From positions 10,150 through 74,149 of the forward strand of contig LGEZ01000005.1 in NCBI GenBank assembly GCA_001508005.1: a stretch of DNA of 64,000 nucleotides, given 5' to 3'. The position numbers were made by a program, and so were the translations under genes. The notes below the pieces were generated by a model that saw only the letters and a program-made list of their open reading frames with translations, ran no database searches and was not told the DNA's origin. This DNA comes from Clostridia bacterium 41_269. Lineage in GTDB: Bacteria; Bacillota; DTU086. Positions 3,103 to 61,765 of this stretch are shown one piece after another; the first letter of the stretch is position 1; each line of letters starts with the position of its first letter.

Positions 3103-4563
<1,461 letters not shown>

Positions 4564-5439
4564 TTACATATTCTTCAAAGCTTCTGCACCGCCGACAATT
4601 TCTGAGATTTCCTTGGTAATTGCAGCCTGGCGGGCACGGTTGTATGAAAGGATGAGCTTATCGATGATTTCCTGAGCATTATCCGTAGCGTTGCCCATGG
4701 CTGTCATTCTGGCACCGTGCTCACTGGCTTTTGCTTCAAGGAGAGCGTGATAAACCTGAATTTCTATATGCCGCGGGAGAAGCTCTCCCAAAACCTCAGC
4801 AGGAGACGGCTCAAAAATGTATTCCACTTCACTCCAGTGTTCTTCGCCTTCCCCTTCCCCTGCCTCGGTTTCTACAGGAAGAAGCCTTACTATAGTGGGC
4901 TTCTGCTGGATAGGTGAAATAAACTCATTGAACAGCAGGTGCACTTCCCGCAGTGTTCCATCTGTAAACAGTTCCATGAGTTCCTTAGCCAGCTCTCGAG
5001 CCTGAATGTATGTGGGGATGTCCCCTATGTTTATATAATCCCTCAGAAGGGGATAATTTCTGTAGCGGAAGTAGTCCCTACCCTTCCGACCCAGGGCAAT
5101 GATCGCTGCTTCGTCCCTGCAGGAATCAATATGCTGTTGGGCAAGGCGCAGGATGTTGATGTTGTAGCCGCCTGCCAAACCCCTGTCGCCTGTTATAACC
5201 ACAAAGCCTATTTTACCCTTTTCAGGATATGACAGAAGGGGATGCTTAAACTCTCCCACCCCTGCGGTGAGCCTTCCCAGCACTTCCTGCATTTTATTGG
5301 AATAGGGCCTTGAAGAAACTGCTTTCTCCTGGGCACGGCGGAGTTTAGCTGCTGCAACCATCTCCATCGCTTTTGTAATTTTCTGGGTGCTCTTTATGCT
5401 TCGGATCCTCCGCTTTATATCCCTGGTGCTTTGAGCCAA
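4564..5439 (-). CDS. atpG: F0F1 ATP synthase subunit gamma
   Basis: 291 aa. N-terminus MAQSTRDIKRRIRSIKSTQKITKAMEMVAAAKLRRAQ is the gamma signature. Confidence 0.95.
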   Translation of the reverse strand: MAQSTRDIKRRIRSIKSTQKITKAMEMVAAAKLRRAQEKAVSSRPYSNKMQEVLGRLTAGVGEFKHPLLSYPEKGKIGFVVITGDRGLAGGYNINILRLAQQHIDSCRDEAAIIALGRKGRDYFRYRNYPLLRDYINIGDIPTYIQARELAKELMELFTDGTLREVHLLFNEFISPIQQKPTIVRLLPVETEAGEGEGEEHWSEVEYIFEPSPAEVLGELLPRHIEIQVYHALLEAKASEHGARMTAMGNATDNAQEIIDKLILSYNRARQAAITKEISEIVGGAEALKNM

Positions 5440-5473
5440 AATATCTCACCACCTTTAAGGCATAACAGAAGTA

Positions 5474-7553
<2,080 letters not shown>

Positions 7554-45463: not shown

Positions 45464-46132
45464 TTACTTTTTAAACCTCTTTCTTGGTTTTGTTCTTTTA
45501 CCTTCCCGAAATTTGAAACCGATATCGGTAAGCTGAATTTCCGACAGATTATAAATTTTTTCTAAATCCATTTCGTCTTGTGCCATTATTACCCCTGAAC
45601 TGCTACAACAGCCGCATTTAAGTTCCAGCCTATCGGGAAAGATTTCAATTTCTATGTTTAAATTACCGCAGCGGCAGAAGAGCCTACCTTCCTCTGCAAG
45701 GAAATTAAGATGGTCCAGTACGCCATACATAACATCTGGGTTAACAAAATAATCACTAAAACCAAGATTTTCCGCGATTTCTGCAAGGGAATTTTCTCCA
45801 GTTTCCATTGCCTGCTTAATTATTTCTTCATCCCCAATATAAGCTATATCGAGGCCCGTTTCTTCGCAAACTAAGGGTAGAAATTCCGCTTCCCATAGCT
45901 GTTTGCGGTTATAATAAAAGATATGCCTGCCCATGCAGTAGCCGCACTCCAGTTGAAGCCAATATTTTTTACGGTCCTTGGTCCCAATTACTGCTATGTC
46001 AGCACCGCACTCACATTTAAACTTCAACGACTTGGATCCAGAAAAAGAAAAAATAGAAATATCGTAACAGCCAATTTCTCCGCAGTAGGGGCAGCGCAGT
46101 ACCATTTTAGTCAAAGTTGTAACTGTAGACAT
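45464..46132 (-). CDS. Cys-rich zinc-ribbon protein (YwjG-position hypothetical)
   Basis: 222 aa with multiple CxxC pairs (CPYCGE, CECGAD, CGYCMG, CRCGN, CGCCSS). Holds the Bacillus synteny slot between fba and spo0F. Confidence 0.5.
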   Translation of the reverse strand: MSTVTTLTKMVLRCPYCGEIGCYDISIFSFSGSKSLKFKCECGADIAVIGTKDRKKYWLQLECGYCMGRHIFYYNRKQLWEAEFLPLVCEETGLDIAYIGDEEIIKQAMETGENSLAEIAENLGFSDYFVNPDVMYGVLDHLNFLAEEGRLFCRCGNLNIEIEIFPDRLELKCGCCSSSGVIMAQDEMDLEKIYNLSEIQLTDIGFKFREGKRTKPRKRFKK

Positions 46133-48585: not shown

Positions 48586-49785
48586 TTAAGAATACTCACC
48601 CTGACGCTGTATACAGCTCCTTTTGCCCCAGGGAACCCTAATACCTATCACTCTTTTTTCTGAAATATATACCCTGGGAAGTCTGCTGCTGGAATTGGTC
48701 CGCCTTATAAAAACAGAAACGATGCTTCCCACATCAGCATTTTCATCAGGCAGCTCCACTGCCGTAAACTGCATACCTATTCTCCCTAAAACCCTAAGGG
48801 GCAAGTCCGCCAATTTTACCAAAGGCATACCTGCCCTTATGCCAAAATATGCGAAAATTTTTTTAATGATCATTTTTAAAAGATCCAAAAAATTTTTAGG
48901 ATTCATTTCCGGCGCCGTTCCAAAACTATCAGCATAACCTACAGGTATTATACCAATACGCACTGCTTTCTTTACTGTAAAATCCCCTCCGTACCCAATC
49001 TTTTCTCCAGGGAAAACTTTTTTTACGTGTATAATCTTTGCTTTTACTTTCCAGGGATCTTTCAGGGGAATTATCTTTTCATATCCAAAGGGGTACTGTC
49101 CATATATTAGAGTGCCCACCCTCACCATATCCATGTGCATATGGGGCATGTCTAAAAGAGCTGCGCTGCTGCAGACATGTTTTATGGGAATAGAATACCC
49201 TTTGTCTTCCAAAGAAGAAACAACCTCCATAAAAGTTTTAAACTGTTTTTCAACAAAGTTTCTGTTTTTTCTAGGGGTGACAGCAAAATGAGTATAAATA
49301 CCCTCCACTTCAATAAAGGGGTTCCCATAAACCCTGCTGACAAACTCCACAGCCTCCTTGGGCTCCATTCCCAAACGGTTCATACCCGTATTAACCTTTA
49401 TATGTACCTTCAAAGAATGCTCAAGATTTTCCTTCAGAAGGGTTTCTGCAGCAGCATAACTCCCAACAGTAGCTGTAAAATTATAATTAATAAAAACATC
49501 CTTCTCTTCAGGCATAAACGGGGTAAAAACAAGTATAGGAGCTTCAACTTCCATTTCTCGAAGCTCCAAACCCTCGTCAATGGTTGTGACCCCAAGCATA
49601 TCAGCTCCAGCTTCCAGAGCAGCTTTTGAAACCTCAACAGCACCAAAGCCGTAGCCATCAGCTTTCACCACAGCCATTAATTTTGTTTCCGGAGACAGGA
49701 GCTTTTTAATCTGTGCCACATTAAATTTAACAGCATCAAGATCTATTTCCACCCATCTGGGACCAATAAAGGATGGTAATGCCAT
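48586..49785 (-). CDS. alr: alanine racemase
   Basis: ATG at 49785 after AAAGGGGAAAAGG. MALPSF...AVVKADGYGFG with the PLP-binding lysine. The ORF-track start at 49902 is an over-extension. Confidence 0.9.
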   Translation of the reverse strand: MALPSFIGPRWVEIDLDAVKFNVAQIKKLLSPETKLMAVVKADGYGFGAVEVSKAALEAGADMLGVTTIDEGLELREMEVEAPILVFTPFMPEEKDVFINYNFTATVGSYAAAETLLKENLEHSLKVHIKVNTGMNRLGMEPKEAVEFVSRVYGNPFIEVEGIYTHFAVTPRKNRNFVEKQFKTFMEVVSSLEDKGYSIPIKHVCSSAALLDMPHMHMDMVRVGTLIYGQYPFGYEKIIPLKDPWKVKAKIIHVKKVFPGEKIGYGGDFTVKKAVRIGIIPVGYADSFGTAPEMNPKNFLDLLKMIIKKIFAYFGIRAGMPLVKLADLPLRVLGRIGMQFTAVELPDENADVGSIVSVFIRRTNSSSRLPRVYISEKRVIGIRVPWGKRSCIQRQGEYS

Positions 49786-49807
49786 ATCCTTTTCCCCTTT
49801 ATACATT

Positions 49808-50908
49808 TTAAGCACCACCGGTGTTTTTAGTTTTTTTGTAAAATCTGATGAGTTTTTTAACAGGCCCTGAATAGAAGGCTTCCATTGCCGTATAGGTTCC
49901 ATAAATCACATGAGAATAGGGCAGATCAAATTCACCAATAAACTCCACATAATCTCCATTGAAGCCTTTCTTAAAACGGTAAAGTCCATAAAGGGGGTTG
50001 TCCGGCGTTAATCTTCCAGGAACTCCCCTGAAATCATATATTCTACAGCCGTTTTCCTTAGCCCACTCAATCATTCTCCACTGCAGCAGATAATTGGGCA
50101 TAACATTGCGGTGTTCATTACTGGAAGCACCATATATGTACCACGTTTTATCTCCAAAAATAAAAGCTATTGTACCGGCAATAACTTTCCCTTTATATTC
50201 TGCCAAAAAAAGCTTTGCCAAATTTTTTTCCACCAAACAGTCCCAGAGGGTTTCAAAATAATCATAGGATCTTATTAAAAAATTATCCCTCTTTGCCGTT
50301 ACGGTCAGTATATCATAAAACACCCGCAGATCTTCCTTGGTGCAGTTTTCCTTTATTTTTACACCCTTTCTCCTGGCCAACCTGATATTATAGCGGGTTT
50401 TGCTGTGCAGATTGGCAAAAAGATCATCTAAACTCGGCGTAATATCAAGGCGGAATACATATCTTGGCTGGATTCCCTCAAAATCACTTTTATCCTGATG
50501 TCTAAAACCCCTGCTCACCAAATAATCCACGATTTCTTTATTTGATGATGGTATATCGGGATCAATTTTGAGCATAAAAGCCCGCCGCCTCTGGGCAAGC
50601 TTTTTTATTTCTGCCAAAAGAAAATCAAACAGCTCTTTATCTTCGTAATCAAGTACAGGGCCCCTGGGAGCATAAAAAATTTTTCTTTTCAGGAAAGGAA
50701 CAGTTCTCTCCAGAATAGAAACGGCAGCTATAATTTTTCCTTCTTTTTCAATCACAAGGCGCAGAGGAACCCATCCAGTCCGAGCCTTTACCTCTCCCCA
50801 TTCAAAAGATTGAAAAATGTGGCCCTTTTTTGAACTGGCAACAAAATTATTAAACTTTTCCCTGTCCCGTTCATCGATAAGATATGCTTTGTATGCCAAG
50901 AAAAACAC
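49808..50908 (-). CDS. FemAB-family peptidoglycan interpeptide-bridge aminoacyltransferase
   Basis: 366 aa. FemAB/GNAT-fold family sequence (GHIFQSFEWGEVK...). Confidence 0.8.
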   Translation of the reverse strand: MFFLAYKAYLIDERDREKFNNFVASSKKGHIFQSFEWGEVKARTGWVPLRLVIEKEGKIIAAVSILERTVPFLKRKIFYAPRGPVLDYEDKELFDFLLAEIKKLAQRRRAFMLKIDPDIPSSNKEIVDYLVSRGFRHQDKSDFEGIQPRYVFRLDITPSLDDLFANLHSKTRYNIRLARRKGVKIKENCTKEDLRVFYDILTVTAKRDNFLIRSYDYFETLWDCLVEKNLAKLFLAEYKGKVIAGTIAFIFGDKTWYIYGASSNEHRNVMPNYLLQWRMIEWAKENGCRIYDFRGVPGRLTPDNPLYGLYRFKKGFNGDYVEFIGEFDLPYSHVIYGTYTAMEAFYSGPVKKLIRFYKKTKNTGGA

Positions 50909-58625: not shown

Positions 58626-59480
58626 TTAATTAGCTTTTGGCAGTGATGTTTCTTTCTTGGGAAGATAAACCCTAAACGTGGTGCCAGATCCTTTTCGGGA
58701 AATAAGTTCTAATTTCCCCCCGAATTTCTCTATAATGCGTTTAACAATGGGCAGGCCCATACCAGAACCCTTCTCCCCTTTTGTACTGAAACCAGGTTCA
58801 AAAATTTTATCAAAAAGCTGAGGAGGGATATGTCCCGGGTTCCATATTTCAAAAATATAAAATTCCTTATCTTCAGAAATTTCAATGCGTACATTATTTA
58901 TTTCTTCGTGTCTTTGTGCCTCAAAAACAGCATTATCAATAAGATTTCCCAAAATACTTATCACTTTATCAGGCGGTAGAGAAAGGTGTTTCAGATCTGT
59001 CTTAATCACTGGCTCAATAACAACATTCTCCGACAAAGCCATTTTCTTGCACAGCAGAGCTGCAACTTCGACACACTTTAGACCTGTTATCCTGTCCACC
59101 GTTTTTAAGTCATTAGATATGTATTCCATGTACTTTTTGAGCGCCCTTTTTTCTCCCCTTTCAACCAGCCCATATAAAACCTGAAGATGGTTTGCAAAAT
59201 CATGCTGTTTGGCTTTAAGGGTGCTAATAAGAAAATTGCTTTCTTCCAGCCTTGCCAAAGCAATTTCAGCATCTTTTTCCTTTCTGGCAAGCCTCAACAG
59301 TTCTTTGACCATAAATAGGCAAAGCCCTGCAGAGAAAACAACAATTAAGATTATTACAGCAGGAAGTACGTTGAAAATAAAATCCAAGGTGTGATTTAAG
59401 TAACTAACAGCAATATATAGGTTTAGAAAAACCTGACAAAGCACTATATTCAAAAATATTATTAATTTTCTATCTTTCAA
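58626..59480 (-). CDS. HPK10 (AgrC/ComD-type) sensor histidine kinase, kinase core plus last two TM helices
   Basis: 284 aa. H-box KQHDFANHLQVL, N-box GNLIDNAVFEA, G-box GSGMGLPIVKRI. Confidence 0.8.
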   Translation of the reverse strand: MKDRKLIIFLNIVLCQVFLNLYIAVSYLNHTLDFIFNVLPAVIILIVVFSAGLCLFMVKELLRLARKEKDAEIALARLEESNFLISTLKAKQHDFANHLQVLYGLVERGEKRALKKYMEYISNDLKTVDRITGLKCVEVAALLCKKMALSENVVIEPVIKTDLKHLSLPPDKVISILGNLIDNAVFEAQRHEEINNVRIEISEDKEFYIFEIWNPGHIPPQLFDKIFEPGFSTKGEKGSGMGLPIVKRIIEKFGGKLELISRKGSGTTFRVYLPKKETSLPKAN

Positions 59481-59505
59481 AGAACTGTCATCCCTTTTTT
59501 ATTAT

Positions 59506-59979
59506 TTATTCTAACTCAAACAACTTGATGTAACTTAATCCAAATATTTTATTGAGAATTAGTAATAAAATAAGGAATGTATCCTCCAAGTAGCCGAACA
59601 ATATATGAAGCCATACGCTGCTAAGAATATGCTCCCATGTTAAATTTATCTGCTGAATAATTAAATTGATAAACCAGTTTCCAATCAAAATTAATGAAAA
59701 TCCCGTCAGCACTGCCCCCACAGAAAATATCCAATTCACTTTACCAATAAACTTCATTAAAAGAATTGATAAGACAACCAAAATTAGAGTATGAGTACCT
59801 AAGGGAATGTTATACATTGCATAAAGTCCCCTCACAAACCAAATACAAAGGCTGTATAGACCTGCCGTACATAGAAGCCTTGGAATGGAAAGTTTTAATT
59901 CAAACATTGCCAGCCCAGTATAAAACAAAAGGACAGCCTCTCCAAAATAAAAAAATAGCAAAACTCGTATATCATCCAT
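59506..59979 (-). CDS. polytopic membrane protein, probable detached N-terminal sensor module of the downstream HPK10 kinase
   Basis: 157 aa, 4 to 5 TM. Ends 26 nt before the kinase start in a different frame. The combined length of about 440 aa equals a full AgrC-type kinase. Confidence 0.5.
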   Translation of the reverse strand: MDDIRVLLFFYFGEAVLLFYTGLAMFELKLSIPRLLCTAGLYSLCIWFVRGLYAMYNIPLGTHTLILVVLSILLMKFIGKVNWIFSVGAVLTGFSLILIGNWFINLIIQQINLTWEHILSSVWLHILFGYLEDTFLILLLILNKIFGLSYIKLFELE

Positions 59980-60140
59980 AATAATTCAACCCTATTTTTT
60001 TATCTGTATTATTTTTTTATCTGTATTTCTAATACTTCCAGTGCTGGCTTAAGTACAAGCAGGCTTGGGAATCGTAAGGCAGTTTATTTTTTGGGGATTT
60101 CGGCAGGAATTTTTTATGCTGAAAGATGAAGCAAACCTTG

Positions 60141-60155
60141 TTTTTTTTTTTTTTT
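60141..60155. repeat. T15 homopolymer tract
   Basis: 15 consecutive T residues in the intergenic region downstream of the DNA methyltransferase gene. Confidence 0.9.
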
Positions 60156-60304
60156 GAAAATGCTATCTTTTACCATAGGACATTAATTCTATGATAACTG
60201 CTAATTTCCTTTCAAATACAAACGAAATACAATAATAAATTTTTATTAGACAGCTTTTTGTTTATCTTACTTGTAACAAACCTTCACTGCTATACTTAGA
60301 ACAG

Positions 60305-61207
60305 TCATGACTTTTCATCAATCTTAAGGGGTATTTCAAAGCGCTTTTTAATCCATTCCACATATTTGGGATTAATTTCTATCATTACAAAATCTCTATT
60401 TAAAGCCCTGGCCACATATCCTGTGGTTCCTATACCAGCAACGGGATCTAAAATTAAACTTCCTTCATTGGTGGAAGTAAGAATTATCCTTTTTAATAAC
60501 TCAACGGGCTTCTGAGTAGAATGAACTTTTTTCCCTTCCTCATCTCTTATTCTTTCCCGCCCGCCGCAGAGGGGTAAAACCCATACATTTGCTCCTACTT
60601 TTCCTATACCAAATTCCTTTGCAAAGTCCCTATTAAATACATATTTCTTGGCGTTCTTTTCCCTTACTGCCCAAATTAAAGTTTCCGTGGCATTGGTAAA
60701 CCTTACCCCCAGCCAATTGGGCATGGGATTTGTTTTTACCCAAATAACGTCATTCAAAATCCAAAACCCCAGATCCTGCACGATCCTGCCTATTCTGAAA
60801 ATACTGTGATAAGTTCCTATGATCCAGATGGTAGCATTGGGCTTCATAACCCTTCTAACTTCAGAAAGAAGGCTGTAGATAAATCTATCGTACTCTTCAA
60901 ATGAAGAAAATTTATCCCAATCTTCATCTACACCCTCCACAACGGTTCCAACCGTCCATCTTCTCAATTCCTTTTTGGGAAGCTGGAGAAAATAAGGGGG
61001 GTCCATAAATACCATATCAAAGATACTTTCTGGCAGCTTTTTTAAAACCCTAAGGGCATCTCCTTGAATAATGGTGTTTAAAACTTCTTCTTTAGTATAA
61101 AATTCCCTTTTATCATCAATAATCACTTTTATGGGTTCATTTTCCTCGGCTTGAGCAAAGCCCCAGGTCTGGGTTTCCCCCTGCTTCTGCTTTTTTTCCA
61201 TATCCAA
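60305..61207 (-). CDS. beta-class N6-adenine DNA methyltransferase, CcrM/M.HinfI family (likely GANTC-specific), orphan
   Basis: 300 aa. Motif IV DPPY (FMDPPYFLQL) precedes motif I (ILDPVAGIGTTG). Collinear with CcrM (KPNATIWIIGTYHSIFRIG, GFWILNDVIWVKTNPMPN, VHSTQKP). No restriction gene adjacent. Confidence 0.88.
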   Translation of the reverse strand: MDMEKKQKQGETQTWGFAQAEENEPIKVIIDDKREFYTKEEVLNTIIQGDALRVLKKLPESIFDMVFMDPPYFLQLPKKELRRWTVGTVVEGVDEDWDKFSSFEEYDRFIYSLLSEVRRVMKPNATIWIIGTYHSIFRIGRIVQDLGFWILNDVIWVKTNPMPNWLGVRFTNATETLIWAVREKNAKKYVFNRDFAKEFGIGKVGANVWVLPLCGGRERIRDEEGKKVHSTQKPVELLKRIILTSTNEGSLILDPVAGIGTTGYVARALNRDFVMIEINPKYVEWIKKRFEIPLKIDEKS

Positions 61208-61285: not shown

Positions 61286-61765
61286 CTAACGGTGATAGGG
61301 TTCTCTATTAATAATGGTAAAGGATCTGTAAATCTGCTCCAAAAGAATAACCCGAGCCAGCTGATGAGGGAATGTAAGCTTTGACAGAGACAGCTGCCAG
61401 TGGGATCTTAAGAGAACTGAAGAACTTAAGCCCAGTGTACCCCCAACGATAAAAGTCAGGCGACTTGTACCTCCTAAAAAAAGCTGTTGCAGTCTAGATG
61501 CAAGTTTTTCAGAAGATATTTCTTCTCCTGATATATTTAGAGCTATAACATAAGTATCATCTTTAATATGTCTTATTATCCTCTCCCCTTCTGCCTCAAG
61601 GATTTTCTGTTTATCCCCCGGAGAAAGATTTGAAGGGATGGGTTCATCCTTAACTTCAATTACCTTTACCTTTGTAAATTTCTTAAGCCTTTTAAGGTAT
61701 TCATCAGCAGCTTCTTTATAAAATTTTTCTTTAATTTTTCCCACAGCAACAATACATATTTCCAT
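61286..61765 (-). CDS. rlmH: 23S rRNA (pseudouridine1915-N3)-methyltransferase RlmH
   Basis: SPOUT-fold RlmH sequence (ICIVAVGKIKEKFYKEAADEYLKRL). The true start is likely the internal Met at 61765. Confidence 0.9.
   Translation of the reverse strand: MEICIVAVGKIKEKFYKEAADEYLKRLKKFTKVKVIEVKDEPIPSNLSPGDKQKILEAEGERIIRHIKDDTYVIALNISGEEISSEKLASRLQQLFLGGTSRLTFIVGGTLGLSSSVLLRSHWQLSLSKLTFPHQLARVILLEQIYRSFTIINREPYHR

Follow-up and report, generated by a model that had tools for sequence, protein, structure and literature searches.

What is a DNA methyltransferase (MTase) without a restriction endonuclease (REase) doing among the housekeeping genes of a sporulating Firmicute? The question is raised by a 64,000-nucleotide stretch of the genome of Clostridia bacterium 41_269 (contig LGEZ01000005.1, positions 10,150 to 74,149 of the forward strand; hereafter the window), in which an initial annotation had described a 300-aa open reading frame (ORF) at 60305-61207 as an orphan member of the CcrM/M.HinfI family that suggests epigenetic regulation rather than restriction-modification (R-M). 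We consider it probable, at roughly 0.75, that the gene product is an active beta-class MTase of Type II origin that stands alone, is likely directed at GANTC and has been kept by vertical descent after becoming fixed without its nuclease. What is new here is a Peptococcaceae example of the well-described R-M-derived orphan MTases.

The ORF exists on the minus strand and encodes 300 aa if the TTG at 61207 is taken as the start; the ATG at 61201, two codons into the frame and preceded at 7 nt by the Shine-Dalgarno sequence GAAGGGG, is the likelier start and would give a protein of 298 aa (residue numbers below follow the 300-aa numbering). A database protein from the metagenome-assembled genome (MAG) of a Peptococcaceae bacterium (P0001) matches the 298-aa product at 100% identity, the gene was found on four independent assemblies with its reading frame intact in all of them, and its GC content is like that of its surroundings. 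The protein matches Pfam PF01555 (N6_N4_Mtase) over the complete model (positions 2-221 of 221; E 2.7e-54, 184.9 bits against a cutoff of 26.7). The gene and its two principal motifs are as follows:

60305..61201, minus strand: coding sequence of the predicted solitary beta-class N6-adenine DNA MTase, 298 aa from the ATG

60992..61003, minus strand: catalytic motif IV, DPPY (residues 69-72), the counterpart of CcrM D31-Y34 and invariant in 34 homologs

60419..60448, minus strand: motif I, DPVAGIGTTG (residues 254-263), which binds S-adenosylmethionine (AdoMet)

Motif IV lies N-terminal to motif I, which is the beta-class order, as the initial annotation had stated; all four sequence blocks that it quoted are likewise present. 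An aspartate in motif IV is taken to mean methylation of adenine at N6. The form DPVAG(V/I)GTTG of motif I is also found in REase-linked homologs, which are presumably active. The protein is a beta-class N6-adenine DNA methyltransferase with a CcrM-like core.

Collinearity with CcrM and M.HinfI, which had been claimed for the protein, holds for the catalytic core and ends with it. The best match among solved structures is CcrM of Caulobacter crescentus (PDB 6PBD; E 2.4e-78, query residues 44-291), with 50% identity to CcrM positions 6-251 of 358, the positions being corrected for an 8-residue tag included in the chain numbering of 6PBD. An AlphaFold2 model based on 34 homologs (predicted template modelling score 0.80, a single domain) also has this chain, 6pbd_A, as its best structural match (template modelling score 0.75, 47% identity); the model is disordered only at residues 1-19 and in loops 79-85, 158-171 and 201-207, which correspond to the CcrM DNA-contact loops 2B, 45 and 6E. 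Around 30 extra N-terminal residues extend beyond the N-terminus of CcrM, with residues 21-43 partly ordered in the model; CcrM has no such extension. In CcrM itself, a linker joins the core (1-254) to a C-terminal segment of 83 residues (275-358), which M.HinfI and M.BabI also have. This segment binds the non-target strand and is essential for strand separation, and CcrM without it is inactive (PMC7672430). By contrast, the window MTase stops 9 residues past the position aligned to CcrM 251 and lacks both linker and segment, and its match to the NCBIfam CcrM equivalog NF050803 reaches 329.1 bits against a cutoff of 830 and covers only model positions 3-249 of 350. A regular-expression search for the C-terminal signature S-I-H ... 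N-G-[WF] ... [DN]-x-x-R in all six frames of the whole window gave no match, which speaks against a C-terminal domain hidden in another frame or elsewhere in the window; the frames 3' of the MTase stop are full of stop codons. The missing domain is a trait of the family rather than a truncation peculiar to this genome, since the close homologs are all short (263-367 aa, with one outlier of 522 aa). The MTase of this lineage is also without a tail of about 20 aa that most REase-linked homologs have at the C-terminus. On sequence, the protein is therefore CcrM-like in its core and lies outside the CcrM/M.HinfI family in which it had been placed, and the family label is to be corrected to that extent.

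The relatives of the MTase reveal the company that this family usually keeps. Clustering of the genes around the MTase in 80 loci, taken from species-representative genomes, revealed a conserved protein of 276-290 aa that is encoded directly downstream and on the same strand in relatives. This partner is a member of the NCBIfam HpyAIV family of type II restriction enzymes (NF045832; 245 bits against a cutoff of 160) and also matches the PADLOC family REase_II (E 1.7e-79); Pfam PF09520 (HinfI) is given in precomputed annotations of the partner and was not reproduced with a local copy of Pfam-A, and the NCBIfam HpyAIV equivalog was used for its assignment. Outside the window's own lineage, tblastn detected the partner REase in 41 of 77 loci; the five closest (L001-L005), with MTases 75-79% identical to that of the window, all have the REase. 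It is also carried by L172-L174 and accompanies two metagenomic MTases of 81-82% identity (P0009 and P0017; 255-261 bits). In all 41 REase-positive loci the nuclease lies downstream on the same strand, either translationally coupled or with one inserted ORF between; in REase-linked operons the TGA of the MTase overlaps the ATG of the nuclease (ATGA), which implies translational coupling. The closest homologs of the window MTase are thus M subunits beside an HpyAIV-family REase (245-261 bits), and in this they resemble the HpyAIV-type R-M system of Helicobacter pylori, a HinfI isoschizomer that recognizes GANTC. This likeness is drawn via the partner nuclease family; the window MTase differs in having no R subunit, and the H. 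pylori MTase is listed in the group with the C-terminal segment (PMC7672430), whereas the family of the window MTase is without it. The family, at 65-80% identity, is spread across Thermodesulfobacteriota, WOR-3, Aquificota, Chthonomonadia, Clostridia, Thermoplasmatota, Heimdallarchaeota and others; identity this high between bacteria and archaea of such distant phyla points to horizontal transfer on a very active scale.

The sequence read by the enzyme can be approached through the contacts made by CcrM. In the CcrM target strand, R44 reads the G, the DPPY loop and K193 the target A, W109 and R129 the T, and N124 with loop-45 the C; loop-45 reads both the T and the C of GANTC, and R179 and K187 contact phosphate (PMC13092597). 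All of these residues (D31PPY34, R44, W109, N124, R129, R179, K187 and K193) are kept in the window MTase, where R44 aligns to R82, and the contact positions are invariant across the 34 homologs. The equivalent of loop-45 is the following:

60698..60730, minus strand: NPMPNWLGVRF, in which CcrM N124 corresponds to N164, F125 to W165 and R129 to R169; invariant across the family

Two positions differ from CcrM, the wedge residue F125 being replaced by tryptophan and L42 by glutamate; both replacements are family-wide and include the REase-linked homologs. M.HpyAIV is an experimentally established GANTC enzyme that produces N6-methyladenine (m6A) (PMC3936762). Taken together, the conserved base-contact residues and the operon coupling of homologs 75-82% identical to HpyAIV-family (GANTC) nucleases suggest that the window MTase is likely to be specific for GANTC, in agreement with the initial annotation. 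Methylation of adenine in GANTC has already been seen in a Clostridium methylome (PMC12311949).

No nuclease was found within about 74 kb around the MTase or at the position that is canonical for the family, and for this region the designation of the gene as an orphan without an adjacent REase is borne out. The gene list of the source contig shows no nuclease within 10 kb on either side of the MTase; a profile of 38 partner nucleases gave a best E of 0.74 against six-frame translations of the window and of the lineage's loci L081 and L085; and a PADLOC scan of the 69 other ORFs of the window matched no REase family. The second species of the lineage (L085; MTase 82% identical) likewise has no REase at the canonical position and no remnant of one. 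In the window, this position is occupied by a spacer:

59980..60304, minus strand: AT-rich spacer of 325 nt downstream of the MTase, with no remnant of a REase or of a C-terminal domain

Tblastn and profile searches found no trace of the tail or of the nuclease, and when the spacer was aligned locally, as nucleotides, to the tail and REase of six REase-linked loci, the scores were no higher than the mean for shuffled sequence. A frame 0 peptide, VTSKINKKL, had been likened to the tail VSERKINQYF of REase-linked homologs as a possible remnant and was rejected as a chance resemblance. A defence island was also considered for the window, where PADLOC mad2, mad3, mad8, AriA, dCTPase and RT-Protease_XI matched several ORFs (E 1e-18 to 1e-51); we take these as most likely generic domains, given the content of PrmC and other methyltransferases, ABC ATPases, ATP synthase and HtrA. 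The remainder of the window is of housekeeping character (the ATP synthase operon, MurA, SpoIID, SpoIIID, SpoIIT, RF-1/PrmC, Sua5, SHMT, Rho, aldolases, ArgS and PyrG), and the three Spo proteins identify the host as a sporulating Firmicute, as had been stated.

Upstream of the MTase and on the same strand, the order is a copper P-type ATPase, htrA, rlmH and then the MTase, with two features of immediate relevance:

61286..61765, minus strand: rlmH (159 aa; 23S rRNA pseudouridine1915 N3-methyltransferase), the upstream neighbour, NCBIfam NF000985 at 215 bits against a cutoff of 172, syntenic in L085

61202..61285, minus strand: short spacer that separates the stop codon of rlmH from the start of the MTase, with no minus-strand terminator-like site; about 80 nt in L085 too

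Because the spacer holds no terminator and measures only about 80 nt in both species, the MTase is likely to be co-transcribed with rlmH. The HtrA-RlmH-MTase order is the same in the second species, and so are the sensor, methyltransferase, DUF1614, sigma, ArgS and PyrG genes that follow the MTase. Between the two species, synonymous divergence (dS) of the MTase is 0.84 and the ratio of nonsynonymous to synonymous divergence (dN/dS) is 0.11; flanking well-conserved genes have a dS of 0.83-1.13 (ArgS 0.89, PyrG 0.83, RlmH 0.86) and a dN/dS of 0.05-0.15. As both values are like those of its neighbours, the MTase appears to have been in place since the species split and under purifying selection, which fits vertical inheritance. 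In 80 more distant rlmH loci from metagenomes (RlmH identity at most 53%), rlmH is never accompanied by an MTase. The window's lineage is thus the only one with the arrangement, and the date of insertion is only loosely bounded.

The position of the lineage within the family bears on how the solitary state arose. In a neighbour-joining tree of the core region, rooted on CcrM, L081 and L085 are sister to the REase-linked L001-L003, inside a clade that is mostly REase-linked. This nesting indicates that the solitary state is secondary, through loss of the nuclease or, alternatively, through acquisition of the M gene alone from such an R-M system. A parallel case is provided by the nuclease-less L006 and L008, next to the REase-linked L004 in the same tree; earlier-branching groups (Moorella, several Heimdallarchaeota and others) are also without the nuclease. 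Orphan MTases that arose from R-M systems by nuclease loss and persist in core-genome contexts form a general and well-described class (reportedly treated, for example, by Seshasayee and colleagues in Nucleic Acids Research in 2012), and the window MTase resembles such orphans in being nested among R-M-linked MTases, in its lost nuclease, in its core-genome context and in the purifying selection on it, with no essential difference. Loss of the nuclease with long retention of the MTase beside housekeeping genes is a common evolutionary outcome.

In the scheme that we favour, the enzyme would methylate the adenine of 5'-GANTC-3' at N6 on both strands, with S-adenosylmethionine as methyl donor, by means of the DPPY pocket and the CcrM-like loops and without the CcrM C-terminal domain, like its REase-linked relatives and M.HhaII. 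The family of about 300 aa normally travels as a two-gene R-M operon with an HpyAIV-family (GANTC) endonuclease and spreads horizontally. In a Peptococcaceae ancestor, the MTase would have become fixed without the nuclease between rlmH and an agr-like sensor locus, and thereafter would have been inherited vertically under purifying selection, probably in one transcript with rlmH.

The benefit for which the MTase has been retained is a separate matter, as purifying selection speaks against a decaying relic and yet does not decide between the possible roles. When an R-M complex enters a cell, a resident solitary methylase can weaken both its establishment and the post-segregational killing that it causes. 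One possible benefit, which we hold tentatively, is that the chromosome is protected from the GANTC R-M systems of this family, which circulate widely; gene regulation or another epigenetic role is possible to a similar or slightly smaller degree, and other or mixed roles take up the rest of the probability. Site statistics did not tell these roles apart. GANTC is mildly under-represented in the window, with an observed-to-expected ratio (O/E) under a Markov model of 0.84; pooled values are 0.73 (z -9.1) for REase-carrying genomes, 0.83 for REase-less genomes and 0.89 (z -1.3) for the window's own lineage. The control palindromes GTNAC, GGNCC and TCNGA are depleted similarly, and GANTC avoidance was therefore dropped as a readout of restriction pressure. 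Intergenic DNA holds 15 GANTC sites, where its length predicts 11.3; the excess is not significant and is uninformative as a sign of regulation. As a separate observation, CANTG is over-represented in the window and in L085 (Markov O/E 1.25, z about 4), and other NNxNN palindromes are mildly depleted.

The alternative that survives best is that the MTase acts as an epigenetic regulator of the CcrM type, in which methylation of promoter GANTC sites would control, for example, sporulation, cell-cycle or quorum-sensing genes. We regard this reading as doubtful, though it can draw on several of the observations above: the enzyme is solitary, vertically retained and under purifying selection, and it sits in the context of a housekeeping operon beside rlmH. 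Depletion of GANTC is also milder between genes (mononucleotide O/E 0.65) than within coding sequence (0.40), and the promoter region of the neighbouring sensor genes contains one GANTC, at 60069. On the other side stand the descent of the MTase from a mobile R-M system rather than from the alphaproteobacterial CcrM clade, the absence of the C-terminal domain required for CcrM mechanism and fidelity, the nonsignificant intergenic count, and the restriction of the arrangement to two species and to none of the 80 other rlmH loci, in contrast to the class-wide conservation of CcrM; moreover, nothing points to cell-cycle-restricted expression or to a methylation-sensitive regulator. Epigenetic regulation in preference to R-M, as first proposed, goes beyond these data, in which R-M descent is apparent, selection is silent on purpose and promoter enrichment of GANTC is not clear. 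A bolder version, in which an R-M-derived MTase was domesticated in the htrA-rlmH operon as an independent Firmicute counterpart of CcrM regulating, for example, the agr-like sensor or sporulation, seems to us rather unlikely; if true, it would provide a natural test of the need for the C-terminal domain in DNA strand separation.

An active solitary adenine MTase with another specificity, such as the subset GAWTC or a shifted site, is unlikely. Such a shift could be read into the two replacements relative to CcrM, F125 to tryptophan and L42 to glutamate, and into the stronger depletion of GASTC than of GAWTC in the window (O/E 0.59 against 0.91, on small numbers), but both replacements are common to the homologs coupled to HpyAIV-family nucleases, to which the window MTase is 75-82% identical, and every base-reading residue of CcrM is kept. 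Still less probable is a complete R-M system in which the gene supplies the modification and a GANTC nuclease is encoded elsewhere in the genome, outside the window. Unlinked R and M genes do occur, and the region inspected amounts to about 74 kb of the genome; however, the nuclease lies directly downstream on the same strand, coupled or one ORF apart, in 41 of 41 REase-positive loci, both species of the lineage are without it at this position and show no remnant, and GANTC avoidance is not significant in the lineage, unlike in REase-carrying genomes, although control palindromes behave similarly. An inactive relic of R-M decay on its way to becoming a pseudogene would account for the loss of the nuclease and of the C-terminal tail of about 20 aa, but is highly improbable in view of a dN/dS of 0.11 at a dS of 0.84 that is indistinguishable from flanking essential genes, of catalytic, AdoMet-binding and DNA-contact residues that are all intact and match family-invariant columns, and of a frame intact in four independent assemblies.

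Several points weigh against an active, vertically kept, R-M-derived GANTC methylase. CcrM depends on its C-terminal domain both to bind DNA and to be active (PMC7672430), and the window MTase is without that domain; activity and GANTC specificity are argued from homology; vertical retention rests on two species, a thin basis; the neighbour-joining tree is built simply from distances and carries no support values; the nuclease search covered 64 kb plus 10 kb of a MAG; and the weak, nonspecific avoidance of GANTC (O/E 0.84-0.89) and the nonsignificant intergenic enrichment do not indicate a role. The concern over the missing domain is eased by the REase-linked homologs, which are also without it and yet must protect their hosts, and by M.HhaII, a GANTC adenine MTase that works without the CcrM C-terminal segment (PMC7672430), so that the segment is not required for GANTC methylation as such. 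M.HhaII, which we compared by its description, differs from the window MTase in being part of an R-M system, and reportedly performs no strand separation or methylation of single-stranded DNA.

The R-M-derived methylase that we favour provides, from a sporulating and uncultured lineage of Clostridia, a dated example of an R-M MTase that turned into a solitary enzyme with stable inheritance. Two wider points follow, neither of which overturns current understanding. The family of about 300 aa keeps the GANTC-reading and strand-wedging residues of CcrM without the C-terminal domain, and purified members could therefore be used to test the role of this domain in strand separation. The M-R operon, at 65-80% identity across distant bacterial and archaeal phyla, represents an unusually mobile GANTC R-M system, against which resident solitary methylases may be selected as protection.

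The mobility of the family is accompanied by variation in the gene content of its loci. Three viral contigs (L167-L169) carry copies of the MTase that are 59-65% identical and without the nuclease. On the 73-kb contig L167, two beta-class MTases stand in tandem at 4170-5798, one 59% identical to the window MTase and one, just upstream, 26% identical to it, with no nuclease; L168 and L169 have solitary copies of 65% identity. These copies look like phage anti-restriction methylases of the same family. Double copies occur within single genomes, namely L004 and L006 in the Chthonomonadia MAG Ch118, of which the first is with and the second without a nuclease, L005 and L022 in one Thermodesulfobacteriaceae MAG, and P0054 and P0061 on one 53-kb contig of Calderihabitans maritimus; they fit repeated acquisition and independent orphanisation. 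In L011, L013, L018, L021, L172 (4971-6026) and L173, an ORF of 346-351 aa is inserted between the MTase and the HpyAIV-family nuclease, with a weak match to the EVE domain (PF01878; PUA-like, modified-base-binding) at 23.5 bits, about at the cutoff; its product may be an accessory that reads modified bases, or it may be Type IV-like. Directly upstream of the MTase in L172 (3870-4004) and L173 (287-421), and overlapping its start, a gene encodes a 44-aa HTH_17 protein (E 1.3e-11) that looks like a controller or an excisionase-like regulator; nothing comparable is found between rlmH and the MTase in the window.

Elsewhere in the window, a 222-aa ORF at 45464-46132 (minus strand), between fructose-bisphosphate aldolase and a response regulator, has no Pfam match at E <= 1e-5 and is the sole sizeable unannotated gene in its stretch; the stretch at ORF 48586-49902 was annotated by direct Pfam scan. 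Downstream of the MTase, the 325-nt spacer is followed by a 157-aa membrane protein, a SPOB_a/HATPase_c kinase, a class I SAM methyltransferase, a DUF1614 protein and an ECF sigma/anti-sigma pair, so that both neighbours named in the initial annotation, rlmH and a kinase module, are confirmed. The latter is the following:

58626..59979, minus strand: kinase module, consisting of the 157-aa membrane protein (59506-59979) and the SPOB_a/HATPase_c histidine kinase (58626-59480)

The module resembles a split AgrC-like sensor, and a functional tie to the MTase is unsupported. In L085, the corresponding split sensor (a 164-aa membrane protein and a kinase) is separated from the MTase by agrB (211 aa, PF04647) and a gene for a 40-aa AgrD-like peptide, at 3395-4300. 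The spacer of the window at 59980-60304 contains no agrB or agrD coding sequence, and the window genome therefore has an agr-like sensor without autoinducer genes of its own at the locus; the spacer does keep about 60 nt, at 75% identity, of the L085 MTase-agrB intergenic region and the agrB start. It also contains a sigma-70-like promoter for the downstream sensor genes at 60215-60186, an A15 homopolymer run at 60141-60155 (minus strand) and, directly upstream of the ribosome-binding site of the 157-aa membrane protein, a perfect tandem 17-nt direct repeat at 59994-60027 (minus strand; two copies of AATACAGATAAAAAAAT). Either the repeat or the A15 run could serve the sensor operon as a regulatory element or be prone to slippage.

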